Made by a program: the position numbers and the translations under genes. 64,000 nucleotides of DNA, taken from NCBI RefSeq assembly GCF_002854065.1, contig NZ_CP024151.1; one strand, given 5' to 3'. The notes beneath the pieces were generated by a model. The model saw only the letters and a program-made list of their open reading frames with translations. It searched no databases and was not told the origin of the DNA. Below are positions 7,891-16,299 of this stretch, one piece after another. The DNA is from Escherichia coli (GTDB lineage: Bacteria; Pseudomonadota; Gammaproteobacteria; Enterobacterales; Enterobacteriaceae). Position 1 is the stretch's first letter; each line of letters opens with the position of its first letter.

Positions 7891-7947
7891 TCCTTAAACG
7901 ATCAGCAATCTACCACTCACTCCTGAGATAAGCAAGAATGTGAATAT

Positions 7948-8205
7948 TTACGAAGTCGCTCTGCGTTTCAACTCTGATTCAATCAGTTTTTCAAGCATCT
8001 GCGCCTGAGTAATACCTTCCTCATCCGCAAGTTCACTCAGCCTGTCTTTTAACCGGGCCTGAATAACCGCATGAAAAGCCTTATGAGTGTTGCTTCTGCG
8101 AGCCAGAGAAGCTCTTTGCCTCTCTCTGGCCGGAACAGGGTTACCTTTCCGGTATGTACGCTTGGTGCCTGATGAGGAAGTCACTGCATTTTCTGTCTGC
8201 GACAT
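7948..8205 (-). CDS. copB: Replication copy-number repressor CopB (RepA2)
   Basis: 85 aa, [23 protein letters not shown]...; small basic protein immediately upstream of the repA leader, as in IncFII replicons. Confidence 0.8.
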
Positions 8206-8467
8206 CTCGCCTCCTCAATTCTCAAACAGGGATCGTTTCGCAGAGAATACTACAGTTTTTTGAAATCAGCGACTTGAAAGTTGTGACGATGATCTGTGTT
8301 GGCGCACAAATCATGTCTGATTACGACCGTTTAATGTGATTTTGATAATGAAATGACTGAAAAGCTGGAAATGCCTTAGCCAGGGTGCCGGCCCCGGGCG
8401 GGACCGGCTGTTTCTGGTATATAGGATGTCTGCCCCTGAAATACCTCACACTTCCGGAAAGCGGGGA

Positions 8468-8671
8468 CTTCCGTGCTTCGTAGGCCAGAGTTACCTGCAC
8501 CACTGTATTTCCTCTGTGAATATTCAGCTCACATAACCGTTCCCTGAATATCAGTGAAAAACACAACACCATGGCGCACACGGCGAGCAACCCGATAAGG
8601 GCATATTTCGTCATAAACTTTGACCTCTCTGCAAAGAAGAGGCTACAATCAGTAGTGTTAAGGTACTTCAT
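8468..8671 (-). CDS. srnB: Hok/Gef-family type I toxin homologue (SrnB-like)
   Basis: Translation MKYLNTTDCSLFFAERSKFMTKYALIGLLAVCAMVLCFSLIFRERLCELNIHRGNTVVQVTLAYEARK matches the SrnB sequence as I remember it; single TM helix plus conserved C-E-L motif. In this sequence the frame reads on to 8321 with no stop after ...EARK. Confidence 0.7.
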
Positions 8672-9619
8672 GCAGACCTCACGAGTTAATGGATTAACGA
8701 GTGGGGTCTTCGCATTTCTGGTACCTGCGTCTTGCCTGAACCAGAAAGGCTCAGACACCCGCCGCGATAATACCACATTCCCTGTTGCTGGCTATTACCC
8801 CCATTTGCCTGTTTTTGTTACAAAAACGCCGGGAGCGGGGGAAAACTTACTTTTTCCCGTTTCCGGGGGGGACAACTGAGCATTGCGAACGCGTCAGCTA
8901 CGATGTTCCGGTGATTGCTGATCAGCCCCTGTTGTATTCATAAACTAATTAACATTCATTCCGTCTGGTGCATAAATCTGCCCGTGAACATCTGCAGACA
9001 ATACCGACCATAAAAAAATAAATAATCCCAGTAGAATATATTTCCTCATATTATTATCCATAACAAATAAATGGCACCTGTACACCTGTATTTCAGGCAA
9101 TCCTGAATATTGCAGCGCACATTGAATAAGACGTTATTTCGTGACATTAATCACAAAATATAAAATCGCGACTTAATACGGAAAAAACTCTGTGCTACTC
9201 AGAACTGACTGGTCATACTGCCCGACCGGATATTAAAAAAGCAAATCTCATAAACTCCTTTCAGCCTTCTGACTCCTGGAGTAATGAAGGCTGCTTTTTC
9301 GTTACACCCTTCCCCGGCAGCGCCGGTAGCAGTGTTCAGCCCTTTTTCGGGCAAACTGCTGCCAGTCTGTCCGGGGCGCAACACAGGCAGCCCGTCGCCA
9401 TCCTTCTGCCGCTTCCATCCAGCGTCCACTGACCTCCAGAATAACGGCCCGGCTTCCGGCACGCTGCCAGCGCCAGACCTGACCGTTCCGTGAACTGTTT
9501 CTGAATCCATTCATCTTTATCACTCCTCTTTAACCCGTCAGTATTATGGTGTTAAATAATCTACTGAATTGGCTTCCTTTCGGGTACGGAAGTTTATTTC
9601 CTTTTAAGCCTTATTTCCC

Positions 9620-9650
9620 TGCCTCCTCTCTCTGATGGAGGCTTTTTTTA
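9620..9650 (+). terminator. Hairpin plus T-run (possible bidirectional terminator at the finO 3' end)
   Basis: GCCTCCTCTCTCTGATGGAGGC stem-loop followed by TTTTTTT on the plus strand, directly abutting the finO stop. Confidence 0.35.
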
Positions 9651-10208
9651 CTTCTCATCAAGCACGGCCTGAAGTTCTGCCTTTATCCGGTTCTGGCGGC
9701 GGATTTTATCCAGACGCTCTGCCGCATACGCTTCCTCCTCCTGAGAAATATGCTCCGTCACATACCCTTCCGTGTCATACCGGCAGGCACCGGCTTTCAT
9801 GGCACACAGATAGCTTTCTGAACGGGTGATGGCCTTCAGCGCCCTGCGCAGTTTTTTATGCGAGAGCGGGATATTCCGCTGCGCCACGTCTTCCAGTAAC
9901 ACGTCCCGGATACCGCAGGCCAGAAGCCGGGGGGTGTCACCGTCAAATAATCCCGGCCACCAGGGCTTCAGGGTGTTCACGGCTTCATCCAGTGTGGGCA
10001 GGTTCAGATAAATGGACAGCGCCTGTCTGGCCTGCGCTTTTTTTGCCGCCAGCTCTGCCTCCCGAGCCGCTTTCTCCACCAGCTTCTGCTTTTTCACCTT
10101 CCATTTTGGTGGCGTGGTGACATTGATGATGGTTTTCCGGTTGCGGACAGGCGCTGTTCCCTCTGTCTTCCGCTTCAGTGTCAGTACCGGTCGCTTCTGC
10201 TCTGTCAT
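9648..10208 (-). CDS. finO: Fertility inhibition protein FinO (RNA chaperone for FinP)
   Basis: 186 aa, uninterrupted; basic N-terminal region and ...[26 protein letters not shown]...; last gene distal to traX as in R100-type plasmids. Confidence 0.9.
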
Positions 10209-10262
10209 GCTGTGTTCTGCCTCTGACGAATCATCCTCTTGCGGCCAAAGATACCATACCCG

Positions 10263-11009
10263 TCACAGCGCCAGAACGTCCAGCACAGCCAGATGACAGG
10301 CATAGAACGTCGGGAAAAAATCCCCGGGCCAGAAACGGGGTAATGATTTTCCTGCACACGACACCAGACCAACGGTCAGCACCGTCATCACAAGGCCGGC
10401 CACCGCCGCTGCATCACTGGTGGCAAGGTTAAGCGCCGGAATAACAGCCAGCAGGCAGGCGACCAGCGCCAGACGTTCCATTCTGTCTTCCGCCCGGTAC
10501 AGCCTGTGGCTGACTGCCAGCATCAGCAGCCCGGCAATGCCGTAACTGGTGCCGGAGAAAGGCAACCACATTGCCAGAAGCAACATGGTCTCTGCGGAAC
10601 GCCACCAGGTGCGCGTTTCACACCATGTCAGCACCTGTGCCGTAACTGCAAAGGCAAACAGGATATTCCCCTCATACCAGGGAAAGCCGGCCAGATAATA
10701 TGCGAACTGGGCAATCACCGCCCATCCCCACAGCCGGTTAATGGCCTCCTGCCGGATATGCGTATGACGGGACAGATTCAGCCCCCACACCAGGGCAAAC
10801 AGCGGAAAGGCCCCACGCCCGACCAGAAACATCCACGACTGGTCCAGATGCAGAATGCGGTTTGCATGGTCCAGAACCATCAGCACCAGTGCCACCGTTT
10901 TGATGATATCCCGCTGTCCGGGTGACCAGACCAGCAACGACTGCAACCAGGTATCGGTCCGGGCAGCCAGTGAATCATTACGTGTTGTGTTCGTGTTATC
11001 CGTTGTCAT
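10263..11009 (-). CDS. traX: TraX, F-pilin N-acetylase (polytopic membrane protein)
   Basis: 248 aa hydrophobic protein immediately downstream of traI; matches the TraX family. Confidence 0.88.
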   Translation of the reverse strand: MTTDNTNTTRNDSLAARTDTWLQSLLVWSPGQRDIIKTVALVLMVLDHANRILHLDQSWMFLVGRGAFPLFALVWGLNLSRHTHIRQEAINRLWGWAVIAQFAYYLAGFPWYEGNILFAFAVTAQVLTWCETRTWWRSAETMLLLAMWLPFSGTSYGIAGLLMLAVSHRLYRAEDRMERLALVACLLAVIPALNLATSDAAAVAGLVMTVLTVGLVSCAGKSLPRFWPGDFFPTFYACHLAVLDVLAL

Positions 11010-11028: not shown

Positions 11029-14000
11029 TCAGTCTCCGCCCAGGGTTTTCTCTTTCTGCAGGGCACGAACCATATCCCGCTCCATCTGCTGCAGTCGCTC
11101 CTGCAGCAGATTTTCCCGGGCAACATCCCGGACCGCTTCCCGCACCCGTTGTGATTCACGCAGCACACTCTCCGGCAGCGCGGCTTCCCGTTCAGATATG
11201 GCAGACCGGTCACGCTCCTGCCCGGCAATCTCCCTGACAGCCTGCTCTGTTTTGCCATCCGGCAGGTCAGGTTTGTTCTCTGCCATTTTACGGACAATTT
11301 CATCCGCACGGCGTTCCGTTTCACGGCGGATGGCCTCTTCAGCTTGCCGCTGTGCCAGTACCTCTGCCGTGACCGGTTCGCCATTTCCGGCTCCCGGCTG
11401 AACGCTGTTGTCCGGGATATCCCCCCACACGCGACCACCGGTGATGGTACCGGGATTCCACGGACGACCTTCACCGGCGATTCTTACCACCACACCGCTG
11501 TCAGGATTATCACGGGCAATCCGGACACCATCCTGCATATTATCAGCCAGCAGGCTCTCTCCGTTACGGCTGCCCTGCAGGGCCACGAACTGCGCATCCC
11601 CGCTGCCTTTCACCCGGCCTTCACCACTGAAGCCCCGCAGCCCGTTTCCGTCATCCGTGGTCAGCGGATTCAGCCAGATACCGGCGGACTTGCCGTTACG
11701 GTCAAAAGCCGGCAGTGCCACATACGGCTGCGGATATTTGCGCCCGGGTGCAATAAACCGTGCAGGATTGTCTCCCCCGGCAAGTCCCGCCTGACGGAGA
11801 ACGGCACGGCCGGCCGCCACGTCCCGCAGCTCCCGCGCCGTACTGAACAGCCGCTCTGCATTCATGACCTCCCGGTCCGATTTCGGCTCAAGCACATCGT
11901 GGGCAGTTCCTTTCTGTACGGCATTGTTAATGGCATCCGTCCAGCCCTGACGGTTATCGGTATACACCTGCACATGCTGCTTCATACGCGACAGGGCCAC
12001 GTAGGCTGACTCAAAGCCGGCCATCTGTTTCCGGCTGCCTTCCGTACCTTCAAGCGCGATGGCAAAGGTTTCACTTGCCCCCTGCGCACCGTGGGCGGTG
12101 ATGGCATAGGCCAGGTCAATATGTTGCTCTGCCCGCTCCTGACCGGGGCGAATCACCCGGGTCTGCTGTCCGTCCGACAGCGTGACACTGTCACCGGAAA
12201 CCGCTGTCACCGTCCAGACGCTGTTGGCCACATAACCGCGCTCCCGGTCACTCTTCGTGAAGCGCATCCGGTCACCGGTTCCCACCCGGATGGTGTCCGG
12301 GGTGTACAGTGTGACGCCTTCAGCCACCGCCTCCCGGGGCGAAATCAGCCGCGTGTTACCTTCAGCATCCTGCAGGGTTATCAGCCCGTCATCCCTGCTG
12401 ATACCGGCAATCCGGTGATACACATTATCCACCAGGGCAAGTGCGTCCCGATGTGTCTCCCAGGTGGAGAGACGACGCAGCTCCCCGTCGCGTATATTCG
12501 CTGTGTTCAGGACAGGCACCATGACCTGCTCTTTTCCCAGCTCACCGGCCTTTTCCCGTGCATCATGAATCATGCTGTTCAGCACGCGCCGGTCCTCATT
12601 CAGGTGCGTGACAATCAGCGTCTGCTCCCGTGCTTCCGGTGTTCTGCCGGTATAGTCGCGGACAATGGCTTCATACAGTGTCATGGGGACATCCGGGAAA
12701 GCCTCGCCTTTCAGCATCGCCTTCTGCTGCGCTTCTGCCAGTTTCGCTTCCTGGCTGTGACTGAACTCCATCACGGAGTGCTCCGGTGCCCATGCGCCCT
12801 CCAGACGTGGCACCTGAGACGGTTTCACACTCTCAAGCCCGGATAGTGCCCTTTCCACATCCCGGTTAATCAGGTTGTATACCGCCTCCCGCAGTTCCGG
12901 CGTCTGACGCACAATCTCCTTCATGATGGCCACATCGGCAGCACTGCGCGTCTGCTGGAGACGGAAAGGCTGACCGGGCGCGATGGCCTGCAGCTGGTCC
13001 GTGTCACCACTGGCCACGGCACGACCGCCACCGGCCGCAATCAGGGCGTATGCCCGTGCCATGTCGGTATTGCCCACCATTGAGCTCTCATCGAGCAGGA
13101 ACAGCGTGTTGCTGAAATCCGGCGTTTCTCCGCTGCGCTGCTGCAGCTGCGTGTCATGCAGAAAAGACGCCAATGTCTGCGCATCCACGCCGGCGCTGCG
13201 CATCTCCCCGACCGCACGGTGTGTGGGACCCAGCCCAACGACACGGGGACGCTCACTCTCCGGCAGCATGTTCACGGCTGACATCACCGCCCGGAACTGT
13301 GTGGTCTTACCCACACCGGCATAGCCCTGCACCACCGTGAAGCGGTCGGACGTTTCCAGTATCATGCGGGTGGCGGCGCGCTGTCCTGATGTCAGTTTCT
13401 CCATGAGTTCGCCAGGTACTCTCTCCATCAGCGGCGTGACCGCCTCCTTACCTTCGAGAATATGGCGAAGAATGCTCTTTTCTGCCTCATACGACGCACG
13501 GGAAACCAGCAGGCCTGTGCCATAGTCTTTTGCCACATCCACATACAGTAAATCACCCCGTTTTATCTGCGCATCGATTTCCCCTCCCAGTTCAGTAAAA
13601 CTGGTTCCTTCTGCAGCAAACGACTTCGCCTCTGTCAGCAGGTCCACCATGCTGAAGGCCAGGTTTTTACTTTCCAGCACAGGAAGGGCCAGATGAATGG
13701 CCTGCTGTGCCGGCGTGTGAAGCCCGGCTTTCTGCAGACTGATAGCGGTTTCCAGCAATGTCTCACCGGCACGCGCCTTTATCTGCTCAGAAACCACCGT
13801 AAAGGAGGGATGGCGGGCAAGTTTTTCCGCAGTACGGGTTTCATCCAGTGAGGAATACAGCCGGACATCACGACCGCTGCGGGCCAGACCGTTCAGGGTG
13901 GCGTTGTCCATTGCCATCTGTGTGACGGAGGCAAAAACCTTCGCACTGTCGCTGACGGAATGCCCGGGCGTTTCCACCCAGCCGCTCTCCAGCTTCAGTG

Positions 14001-16299
14001 CCGTGAACGGTGAATCAGCCACAGGCAGGGAGGCCGGTTCAGCCCGTCCCGGCACAACAACCGTCATCGCGTCCTCGCTGACGGATGCCACCTGCAGGAG
14101 GTCACCGCCGGAGACGCGGAGTCCGGGAATTTTCCCGGTCACCCTCAGACGCTCGCCGTCTGCCACCGGCATTTTTTCCGGCCGGAACAGCGACCAGCTG
14201 CTGTCCAGGGAGGAAATACGCACCACCTGCGTTTCACCCTGCGCATCCCGCAGGGTCAGGCTGTGACTCTGCGCCGTCACCCGGTCGATAACATAGCGGT
14301 CATGACTGCGTGTCTCCGGGTTCCACTGCTCCATCACCATCCCCGGACGGTACATATCCCGCAGATAACGGCTCCGGCTGTCCAGCCAGACCGGTGACAG
14401 TGCCGTCATGGTTACCTCCGGGTGTCCGAGCACGCCCTGTGTTTTCAGCTCACTGCGAATGGCCTGTGTCAGTATGGCCTGTTCCCGTACCCCGCTGACC
14501 TGTGCCACGCTCTCTTCTCCGGCTTTCACGCTGGCCGCAAAATCTCCTGCCAGCCGGGCATAGCGGACATTACGGTCCGGTTCACTGATGATGGTGGCCG
14601 GCCGCTGTTCTCCCCCCTGCCAGCGATATGTGTTCACCCCGGCATCTTTCATGGCCATCAGTGCACTGCCTGTACCGGTTCGCTGCCCGCTGTCGGTTAT
14701 CAGGACCTGTACGTTATGACGTGCAGCACCGTCCAGCAGGGTTAACGTCTCTTTCAGGGAGAGTTTTTCGCCCTGGTCAACGATAACAGTATTGCCCGGC
14801 GTGAAGGCCATGCCCTCCTGCAGCTGACGACGTCCGGTTATCAGCTCACCGGACAGCCGTTCATCCTGCTTCAGGTTCATCTGCGAGCGACGGTCAGCGG
14901 CGATAATCTGCACCTCCCGCCCCTGCTCCCGGGCCATCATGACCAGCTCCGCCACCCGCTCACGCTGCCCGGCTGCACCGCCCTGCCCGGACACAATAGC
15001 CAGCGACGGGCGATCCTGTGCCAGAACACTGACCGCATCGCTGTAACCGGCCGTCCGGGGGACACTTTTCTCCGGATGTACGGTCACCCGGTTCTGTTTC
15101 ATGATGTCACGACTGAGTGCCCGGACTGACAGCTCATCGAGCACATGAATCCCGGACGTGAACAGCCCCTTCTCACGATCGAGGGGGATAAGCTGCTCAC
15201 GGCTGATGGCCTCATCGATACCGGCGCGTGCCCGTTCAATCACACCATTTTCCGGCGGCAGTATGCCGACCGTTCTGGCCAGCACGTCCGTGTACGTAAA
15301 CTGCACTTTGCGTTCACTTAATCCGGCAATCGCCTGTGTCACCGCCTGCTGCACATCCGGCCCGTCCGGTGAAGCAGGCCCGGGCGCCTGCGTGCGGGTC
15401 TCCGCCCGTTGATCCGCCGCGTCACGATACGCCCGGATGTCGAACCCGGTTTCCCTCAGCGTCTGCATCCATTCAGCCATTCTGACTTCAGGATCGACGT
15501 GCTGTTTGGATTTTCGCGTATCCAGTGCCGCCACATCCCGGGATTTCAGCGAGGCATCTTCCCCGACGGCCTCCCGGATAGTCTGTGAGCGTCCGGAAAA
15601 GGCCTCCACCGGTACGCCCGGCATCTCCCACATACCGTGCTTACCCACCACTTCGGTTTCATAGCCCAGCGCCTCAACCTGCTCTTTCAGTTTTTCCCGG
15701 TAGAGCCTGCCAAAGGCAATCTGATTAGCGTACACATTCTCAATGAACCCCGTTTTCCCCACTTTGTCACTGCTCAGTGTCTTCCACTCACCGTTATGCT
15801 GCGTAACATTAGCCACCACCGCATGCGTGTGTAACTGTGGTTCCTGATCGCGACTGGTGTCGTGGTTAAACAGTGCCATCACCAGATTACCGGTCAGTAC
15901 CGTTTCTGACTGTCCGTCCGTCATCACCCGTGTGGAGGCCAGCGCCTCCACCTGACGAACAGCAAAGTCCACGGCCTGGTTATGTGCATCAATCAGGCGC
16001 TTATCGCCACCTAACATGGCCATCATGGAGACACTTTTGGGGGCGGAGAAGGTCAGGTCGTAGCCGGGACGATGCTTATTACTGCCATCCTGCATGCGGC
16101 TTAGATCCGCTCCGTCCGGCAGCCTTCCCTCCAGAAGACGGGTAAAAACATCCTTATCGACACTGCCCTGCAGTCCCAGCTGTTCAGCCCCCCTGCCGGC
16201 CCAGCGTTCTCCCATGCTGCCCAGTACATAGTAATTATCCTTGTCGGTATAATAGTTACCGGCACTTCCGGCCGATCTGACCTGCGCGATACTCATCAT
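11029..16299 (-). CDS. traI: TraI relaxase/helicase (MOBF)
   Basis: 1756 aa; N-terminal relaxase region ([24 protein letters not shown]...) and Walker A GYAGVGKT in the helicase domain; size and position classic for F-like TraI. Confidence 0.95.
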   Translation of the reverse strand: MMSIAQVRSAGSAGNYYTDKDNYYVLGSMGERWAGRGAEQLGLQGSVDKDVFTRLLEGRLPDGADLSRMQDGSNKHRPGYDLTFSAPKSVSMMAMLGGDKRLIDAHNQAVDFAVRQVEALASTRVMTDGQSETVLTGNLVMALFNHDTSRDQEPQLHTHAVVANVTQHNGEWKTLSSDKVGKTGFIENVYANQIAFGRLYREKLKEQVEALGYETEVVGKHGMWEMPGVPVEAFSGRSQTIREAVGEDASLKSRDVAALDTRKSKQHVDPEVRMAEWMQTLRETGFDIRAYRDAADQRAETRTQAPGPASPDGPDVQQAVTQAIAGLSERKVQFTYTDVLARTVGILPPENGVIERARAGIDEAISREQLIPLDREKGLFTSGIHVLDELSVRALSRDIMKQNRVTVHPEKSVPRTAGYSDAVSVLAQDRPSLAIVSGQGGAAGQRERVAELVMMAREQGREVQIIAADRRSQMNLKQDERLSGELITGRRQLQEGMAFTPGNTVIVDQGEKLSLKETLTLLDGAARHNVQVLITDSGQRTGTGSALMAMKDAGVNTYRWQGGEQRPATIISEPDRNVRYARLAGDFAASVKAGEESVAQVSGVREQAILTQAIRSELKTQGVLGHPEVTMTALSPVWLDSRSRYLRDMYRPGMVMEQWNPETRSHDRYVIDRVTAQSHSLTLRDAQGETQVVRISSLDSSWSLFRPEKMPVADGERLRVTGKIPGLRVSGGDLLQVASVSEDAMTVVVPGRAEPASLPVADSPFTALKLESGWVETPGHSVSDSAKVFASVTQMAMDNATLNGLARSGRDVRLYSSLDETRTAEKLARHPSFTVVSEQIKARAGETLLETAISLQKAGLHTPAQQAIHLALPVLESKNLAFSMVDLLTEAKSFAAEGTSFTELGGEIDAQIKRGDLLYVDVAKDYGTGLLVSRASYEAEKSILRHILEGKEAVTPLMERVPGELMEKLTSGQRAATRMILETSDRFTVVQGYAGVGKTTQFRAVMSAVNMLPESERPRVVGLGPTHRAVGEMRSAGVDAQTLASFLHDTQLQQRSGETPDFSNTLFLLDESSMVGNTDMARAYALIAAGGGRAVASGDTDQLQAIAPGQPFRLQQTRSAADVAIMKEIVRQTPELREAVYNLINRDVERALSGLESVKPSQVPRLEGAWAPEHSVMEFSHSQEAKLAEAQQKAMLKGEAFPDVPMTLYEAIVRDYTGRTPEAREQTLIVTHLNEDRRVLNSMIHDAREKAGELGKEQVMVPVLNTANIRDGELRRLSTWETHRDALALVDNVYHRIAGISRDDGLITLQDAEGNTRLISPREAVAEGVTLYTPDTIRVGTGDRMRFTKSDRERGYVANSVWTVTAVSGDSVTLSDGQQTRVIRPGQERAEQHIDLAYAITAHGAQGASETFAIALEGTEGSRKQMAGFESAYVALSRMKQHVQVYTDNRQGWTDAINNAVQKGTAHDVLEPKSDREVMNAERLFSTARELRDVAAGRAVLRQAGLAGGDNPARFIAPGRKYPQPYVALPAFDRNGKSAGIWLNPLTTDDGNGLRGFSGEGRVKGSGDAQFVALQGSRNGESLLADNMQDGVRIARDNPDSGVVVRIAGEGRPWNPGTITGGRVWGDIPDNSVQPGAGNGEPVTAEVLAQRQAEEAIRRETERRADEIVRKMAENKPDLPDGKTEQAVREIAGQERDRSAISEREAALPESVLRESQRVREAVRDVARENLLQERLQQMERDMVRALQKEKTLGGD

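Follow-up and report, generated by a model that had tools for sequence, protein, structure and literature searches.

The 34-codon open reading frame (ORF) between finO and the Hok/SrnB gene of this F-like plasmid is, with a confidence approaching certainty, a neutral and non-functional pseudogene relic, which by sequence comparison would have arisen from an SNase-type thermonuclease gene through two deletions and a nonsense mutation and appears to be still decaying. The homology, the deletion junctions, the nonsense change, an intermediate allele, and a relaxed pattern of substitution are matters of direct observation; the remnant presumably makes no product that matters. The ORF is already flagged as an incomplete pseudogene by RefSeq, and what is added here is the identity of the parent gene together with the exact mosaic structure of the remnant. 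The right label is thus a thermonuclease (SNase-family) pseudogene fused to the tail of a DUF2726 gene, not a hypothetical small secreted peptide. Beyond correct annotation, the remnant itself matters little.

Locus and reading frame

In the window, i.e., the whole stretch of 64,000 nucleotides of Escherichia coli contig NZ_CP024151.1 that was analyzed, the ORF lies at the end of the transfer region of an F-like plasmid, where the genes are on the minus strand:

16299..11029, minus strand, traI
11009..10263, minus strand, traX
10208..9648, minus strand, finO
9514..9302, minus strand, 70-aa ORF between finO and the remnant
8945..9049, minus strand, 34-codon ORF including its TAG, the thermonuclease pseudogene remnant in its present-day form
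from 8614, minus strand, Hok/SrnB gene
8205..7948, minus strand, repA2

The original prediction had described a 34-codon frame opening at the minus-strand ATG at 9049 in the finO-srnB spacer. Both its coordinates and its translation were reproduced exactly: the frame runs from that ATG to a TAG at 8947-8945 and reads MRKYILLGLFIFLWSVLSADVHGQIYAPDGMNVN, followed by the stop, and it is indeed flanked by finO and by the Hok/SrnB ORF. A mechanically produced ORF list contains a longer frame of 51 aa (8945..9100), which begins at an upstream TTG at 9100; judging from homology to the intact nuclease gene, ATG 9049 would be the ancestral start. Plasmid p1916D18-2 (NZ_CP045999.1) is 100% identical.

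The parent gene

When 72,556 plasmids were searched by tblastn with the 34-aa peptide, 3,076 records gave matches, identical copies scoring E=4e-15. The whole peptide was covered in 476 of these records. Most of the others matched through residues 1-25 only, at 68-72% identity, and these matches correspond to the N-terminus of what is annotated as a “thermonuclease family protein”, which was found in this way in more than 2,000 plasmids. The original prediction had proposed that homologous plasmids be searched for a longer intact gene at this position, and that homologues revealing a fragment of a disrupted gene would speak against a small peptide; a gene for a 153-aa thermonuclease family protein is present at the same position, and the ORF is a fragment of it.

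Two intact genes served as references, those of Salmonella plasmid pCFSAN017963_01 (L001) and of the plasmid of E. coli 2015C-4498 (L002). The gene order in L001 is finO, 70-aa ORF, thermonuclease (153 aa), hha, Hok gene, and repA2; the order in L002 is the same, with a DUF2726 gene in the place of the Hok gene. The L002 order is also the one published for pEntH10407, namely, finO, 70-aa ORF, thermonuclease, YmoA/Hha, 196-aa ORF, and repA2 (PMC2762410). The thermonuclease family protein (WP_177238920.1 / WP_159028797.1, 153 aa; ORF074 of pEntH10407, PMC2762410) is encoded at the locus of the remnant, with hha on one side and, on the other, the 70-aa ORF that follows finO. Its gene has the start codon and the upstream region in common with the remnant, and over codons 1-23 and 92-105 the two are homologous, with a DNA identity of 85-94%. 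In contrast to the intact gene, the remnant is devoid of codons 24-91 and 106-153, contains a nonsense codon, and is without a recognizable SNase domain. A literature search for the remnant and for the function of the F-like plasmid nuclease returned nothing on either, only the gene table of pEntH10407 and an unrelated reference to a thermonuclease on a plasmid.

The intact 153-aa protein matches the Pfam SNase family (PF00565) with E=5.5e-30 (104 bits) and solved structures of the S. aureus nuclease with E of about 1e-14 over aligned residues 25-141. Alignment with the PDB SNase places its motifs at residues 30-33 (DGDT), 46-54 (RLxNIDAPE, conforming to RLxxxDxPE), and 86-88 (YGR). In S. aureus numbering the motif positions are Asp21, Arg35, Asp40, Glu43, and Arg87, which are known as the catalytic and Ca2+-binding residues. 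The parent is thus a clear homologue of S. aureus nuclease A (PF00565; PDB 3sr1), and the tail of the remnant, QIYAPDGMNVN, aligns with “AYIYADGKMVN” of the SNase. Unlike the parent, however, the remnant keeps only this 11-residue strand region, all of the catalytic and Ca2+-binding positions lying in the deleted block.

A short frame with a weak Shine-Dalgarno sequence, situated in an intergenic-looking stretch, could also be a chance ORF in spacer DNA, its hydrophobic N-terminus being fortuitous. We give this explanation practically no weight at all, as it is contradicted by the base-by-base match of three separate segments to known genes, by the tblastn E-value of 4e-15 for identical copies, and by the consistency with which thermonuclease N-termini were matched.

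Mosaic structure of the remnant

The junctions were set to the base by blastn and by ungapped base-by-base comparison with the intact genes. The pieces and the lesions that separate them are as follows:

8981..9049, minus strand, piece A: thermonuclease codons 1-23, comprising the signal peptide MRKYILLGLFIFLWSVLSA and DVHG; ungapped against L001:2743-2811
8980..8984, minus strand, crossover zone of deletion 1: exact microhomology CGGGC
8939..8980, minus strand, piece B: thermonuclease codons 92-105 (QIYAPDGMNVN, stop, FM)
8945..8947, minus strand, TAG stop: nonsense mutation of an ancestral CAG, Gln103 of the nuclease
8894..8938, minus strand, piece C: last 14 codons and TGA of a DUF2726-domain gene (NTTGADQQSPEHRS, then the stop)

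The parent would have been a periplasmic or secreted nuclease, encoded in an accessory module (thermonuclease, hha, and DUF2726 gene) between finO and hok/repA2. At the piece A end, blastn aligns window positions 9650-8980 with L001 2145-2812 at 89% identity, and the four mature residues that follow the signal peptide are DVHG in the remnant (DIHG/DVHG). Deletion 1 comprises 204 nt, i.e., codons 24-91 (68 codons), is in frame, and joins codon 23 to codon 92. The CGGGC at its junction belongs to an imperfect direct repeat, 15 nt in length, in the intact gene (ATTCACGGGCGGGTT / ATTCTCGGGCAGGTT), and slippage or illegitimate recombination at CGGGC may have produced the deletion, with loss of the catalytic core. 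Because the DGDT, RLxxxDxPE, and YGR motifs, and so all of the catalytic positions listed above, are within the deleted codons 24-91, no nuclease activity could remain even without the truncation.

Piece B is likewise close to the intact genes: window positions 8988-8939 align with L001 3008-3057 and with L002 3009-3058 at 92-94% identity, and codons 24-34 of the ORF are codons 92-102 of the nuclease. The original prediction had noted a tail of 15 residues after the signal peptide. The length is right, but the tail is not arbitrary: DVHG continues the nuclease N-terminus, and QIYAPDGMNVN represents nuclease residues 92-102. The apparent signal peptide with its short tail would thus be the ancestral signal peptide followed by 4 and 11 nuclease residues. 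The stop that ends it is a single-base change, the intact genes having AAT CAG TTT ATG where the window has AAT TAG TTT ATG. The CAG of codon 103 is found in L001 and L002 (both intact) and in the remnant of L006, and TAG in the window and in L003-L005 and L008-L011.

Deletion 2 lies eight bases after the stop, at a TG microhomology (8940-8939), and after nuclease codon 105 the frame continues into the tail of the DUF2726 gene. Measured on L002, the loss comes to about 984 nt and takes in the 3' third of the nuclease gene, hha, and the greater part of the DUF2726 gene; a single deletion of ~1 kb would account for the fusion and for the absence of all three. The suggestion that the ORF is the decayed 5' end of a gene for an exported protein is therefore borne out by the aligned homologous pieces, the parent being the SNase-family thermonuclease gene, although it told only part of the story, in that the remnant also contains an internal piece of the same gene and is ended by a nonsense mutation.

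An allele in NZ_CP078136.1 (L006) is instructive in this regard. Its two deletion junctions are identical to those of the window, but it reads through codon 103, has non-synonymous changes of its own, and differs from the window in its Shine-Dalgarno mutation. With CAG kept, its frame is a fusion ORF of 51 aa, MRKYIPLVLFIFSYPALSADIHWQVYALDGMNVNQFMNITGDDQQSPEHRS, which ends at the DUF2726 gene's own stop. The presence of both deletions together with CAG in L006 confirms that the TAG of the window arose secondarily, as a nonsense mutation in a tripartite fusion of 51 codons; the CAG-to-TAG change cut that ORF to 34 codons.

Alleles with a single deletion were sought in PLSDB by tblastn with synthetic “deletion-1-only” and “deletion-2-only” junction peptides, and no deletion-2-only form was found in this search. 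Three candidates for a single-deletion intermediate were rejected: L013 is a full-length gene with a frameshift, L014 is truncated by an IS21 element and merely happens to start near codon 91, and L015 has a different, out-of-frame deletion. All three are independent lesions.

With respect to family membership, the remnant resembles a functional SNase/thermonuclease (PF00565) neither on the domain profile nor in the catalytic residues. As a pseudogene by descent it does belong to the SNase family, pieces A and B being 89-94% identical to the intact genes and the synteny being the same.

Signal peptide

The N-terminus of the ORF consists of an MRK n-region, 14 hydrophobic residues with a mean Kyte-Doolittle value of 2.46, and V-L-S-A before an Asp. 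A Sec signal peptide with an A-x-A-type cleavage site had been proposed for it. The N-terminus is signal-peptide-like, as claimed, but the c-region (V-L-S-A|D) has Ala at -1 and Leu at -3, so that the site is L-S-A and not a strict A-x-A. The h-region of the remnant is more hydrophobic than that of the parent. Homology to the annotated thermonuclease N-terminus of thousands of F-like plasmids indicates that the hydrophobic stretch is not a product of chance, and by descent from the parental N-terminus it would qualify as a signal peptide.

Selection and translation signal

Remnant alleles of L003-L006, L008-L011, and the window were compared. Between the window and L003, 5 non-synonymous changes and 1 synonymous change were counted (pN/pS about 1.3), and between the window and L006, 12 and 2, respectively (pN/pS about 1.5); these ratios rest on 6 and 14 differences and have a wide error, though they point in one direction throughout. 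For the two intact genes, by comparison, the count over 153 codons is 9 non-synonymous against 11 synonymous changes (pN/pS 0.25). Several of the changes in the remnants are non-conservative: Y4D in L005, G30R in L003, and G23W and P27L in L006.

The region upstream of the ATG contains two features of note:

9056..9059, minus strand, degraded Shine-Dalgarno sequence: GGAT in place of an ancestral GGAG, six bases before the ATG
9075..9090, minus strand, tandem octamer TACAGGTG in two copies, in the former upstream region of the nuclease gene

The sequence around the Shine-Dalgarno site is ATGGAGAATAA in L001, L002, and L007, all with an intact site, and in the L003 remnant, ATGGATAATAA in the lineage of the window, and ATAGAGAATAA in L006. 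Thus, the site was lost by different changes in two remnant lineages, to GGAT in that of the window and to AGAG in L006. The absence of a strong Shine-Dalgarno sequence, observed in the original prediction, is real and is explained by the replacement of the ancestral GGAG with GGAT in the window lineage (9059-9056). The octamer TACAGGTG is present in one copy in the intact genes and in the L003 and L006 alleles, in two copies in the window, and in at least three visible copies in L009 (c. 1720-1760; the match is 16 nt longer). Such variation in copy number is typical of slippage in unconstrained DNA.

Scans of the 34-aa and 51-aa products against Pfam and NCBIfam matched no family. An Rfam scan of positions 7900-10300 at a permissive E-value gave no credible family over the ORF; a match to the L19 leader there (19.7 bits, with a gathering score of 36; E=0.66) was rejected as chance. 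PGAP labels the same 102 nt a pseudogene ([quoted passage not shown]) in NZ_CP045999.1 (GJD92_RS24530) and in NZ_CP128583.1 (QUS02_RS24475). These features cover the same ORF as is described here but do not include the parent family, the internal deletion, the nonsense change, or the DUF2726 fusion.

These data bear on the alternative raised in the original prediction, namely, that the ORF encodes a genuine small exported peptide. Co-option of the relic would yield a 34-aa pre-peptide targeted to the Sec pathway, either releasing 15 residues into the periplasm or persisting as a small membrane protein. In this scenario the old nuclease promoter would still drive transcription of the relic, translation would be weak, and the pre-peptide in the inner membrane, or the 15 residues released into the periplasm, would affect the host envelope or plasmid biology. 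If true, the ruins of a larger gene would have given rise to a small protein. The ORF is open from its ATG, both deletions are in frame, and the n/h/c layout is intact, with an h-region above the parent's in hydrophobicity, so that translation and membrane insertion are physically possible. The architecture is, moreover, widespread, which can be read as retention, although it can equally be read as clonal spread. Against these points, pN/pS is about 1.3-1.5 between remnant lineages, with the changes mostly non-synonymous and with replacements such as Y4D, G30R, G23W, and P27L; the C-terminus varies, the product being 34 aa in some alleles and 51 aa in another; the Shine-Dalgarno sequence was weakened differently in two lineages; some related plasmids do without the segment; no protein family is matched; and PGAP calls the ORF a pseudogene. 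The remnant thus has neither the purifying selection and conserved frame nor the initiation signal that a selected small ORF would have. In our opinion, a co-opted peptide is very improbable, and the chain of events by which it would come to act on the envelope or the plasmid equally so. The small-peptide claim was accordingly abandoned in favor of a pseudogene relic.

Distribution and repeated loss

A 281-bp segment spanning the junctions was covered to at least 80% in 471 PLSDB records, while about 2,000 more match the internal 50 nt only, i.e., carry the nuclease gene. Among 5,426 complete E. coli genomes, a 601-bp query was covered to at least 80% in 488. The exact peptide allele of the window is rare by tblastn (8 records at 99% or more), and the L003 type dominates the 414 records in the 80-90% band. 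Such abundance of the remnant is expected from clonal spread of IncF backbones and is not, taken alone, an argument for function. The segment would now evolve neutrally and persist by hitch-hiking on successful plasmid backbones, and lineages of IncF backbones could be tracked by its deletion junctions.

The segment is also dispensable in its entirety: in L012 the whole of 9235-8843 is missing, whereas hok and repA2 are kept. This plasmid is relevant to another explanation, admittedly speculative, according to which the DNA is kept for a role in cis, with the former promoter and 5' region of the nuclease gene feeding into, or insulating, srnB/hok-sok. The former upstream region is retained in the remnant, which precedes the Rfam sok match (8760-8602) by some 180 nt and the start codon of hok (8614) by about 330 nt, and a consensus scan finds a weak promoter-like site at 9077-9050, abutting the ATG. 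This match is 9/12, however, and the number of matches in the region is close to that expected from shuffled sequence. In addition, the variable number of 8-bp repeats would alter promoter spacing, plasmids with the intact module have hok or repA2 about 1 kb farther away, and L012 has both without the segment. A role in cis therefore seems to us a slim prospect, and neutral decay of a pseudogene the far better reading.

Apart from the deletions described here, the thermonuclease gene was inactivated independently in many other F-like plasmids: by an IS3 insertion after codon 80 (L007), by 5' truncation by an IS21-like element (L014), by a 1-nt frameshift near codon 93 (L013), and by an out-of-frame deletion inside the gene, between about codons 40 and 99 (L015); in L012 the thermonuclease segment is wholly lost. 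These independent inactivations fit a gene under weak or intermittent selection. The nuclease/hha/DUF2726 module downstream of finO is thus dispensable and has been lost repeatedly, through microhomology deletions, IS insertions, and frameshifts.

Neighboring features

Two Rfam matches lie near the remnant:

9222-9405, plus strand, RF02876 AS-pc02 (“antisense to pHK01_099”), 177.7 bits, E=7e-47
8602-8760, minus strand, RF01794 sok, 94.5 bits

The AS-pc02 match covers, in antisense, the 3' end of the 70-aa ORF together with the DNA that immediately precedes the former promoter of the remnant; it does not overlap the 34-codon ORF. The 70-aa ORF (9302-9514, minus strand) is itself rich in Arg and Trp. 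RefSeq records differ on its name, some giving “ANR family transcriptional regulator” and others “hypothetical”, and its score against NCBIfam ANR_neg_reg, 28.3 bits, falls short of the 32-bit cut-off. The spacer at this ORF diverges more between plasmids (about 87%) than the remnant region does (about 94%). The sok match is on the hok strand, not antisense to it, which probably reflects how the Rfam model was built.

The srnB/hok gene (window 8321-8614, minus strand) has a lesion of its own. A 24-nt deletion between 8-nt direct repeats (ACGGAAGT), with its junction near 8468/8467, eliminates the TAA stop along with one half of the GGGGAC-GGAA-GTCCCC hairpin that immediately follows it, extending the 49-aa Hok frame to 97 aa. 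The Hok of the window also has T15M in its transmembrane segment. PGAP annotates an 83-aa “hypothetical protein” at hok in the identical plasmid L004, and L011, which is 99.5% identical, has a normal hok. The toxin-antitoxin locus of this plasmid is thus probably also defective or altered.
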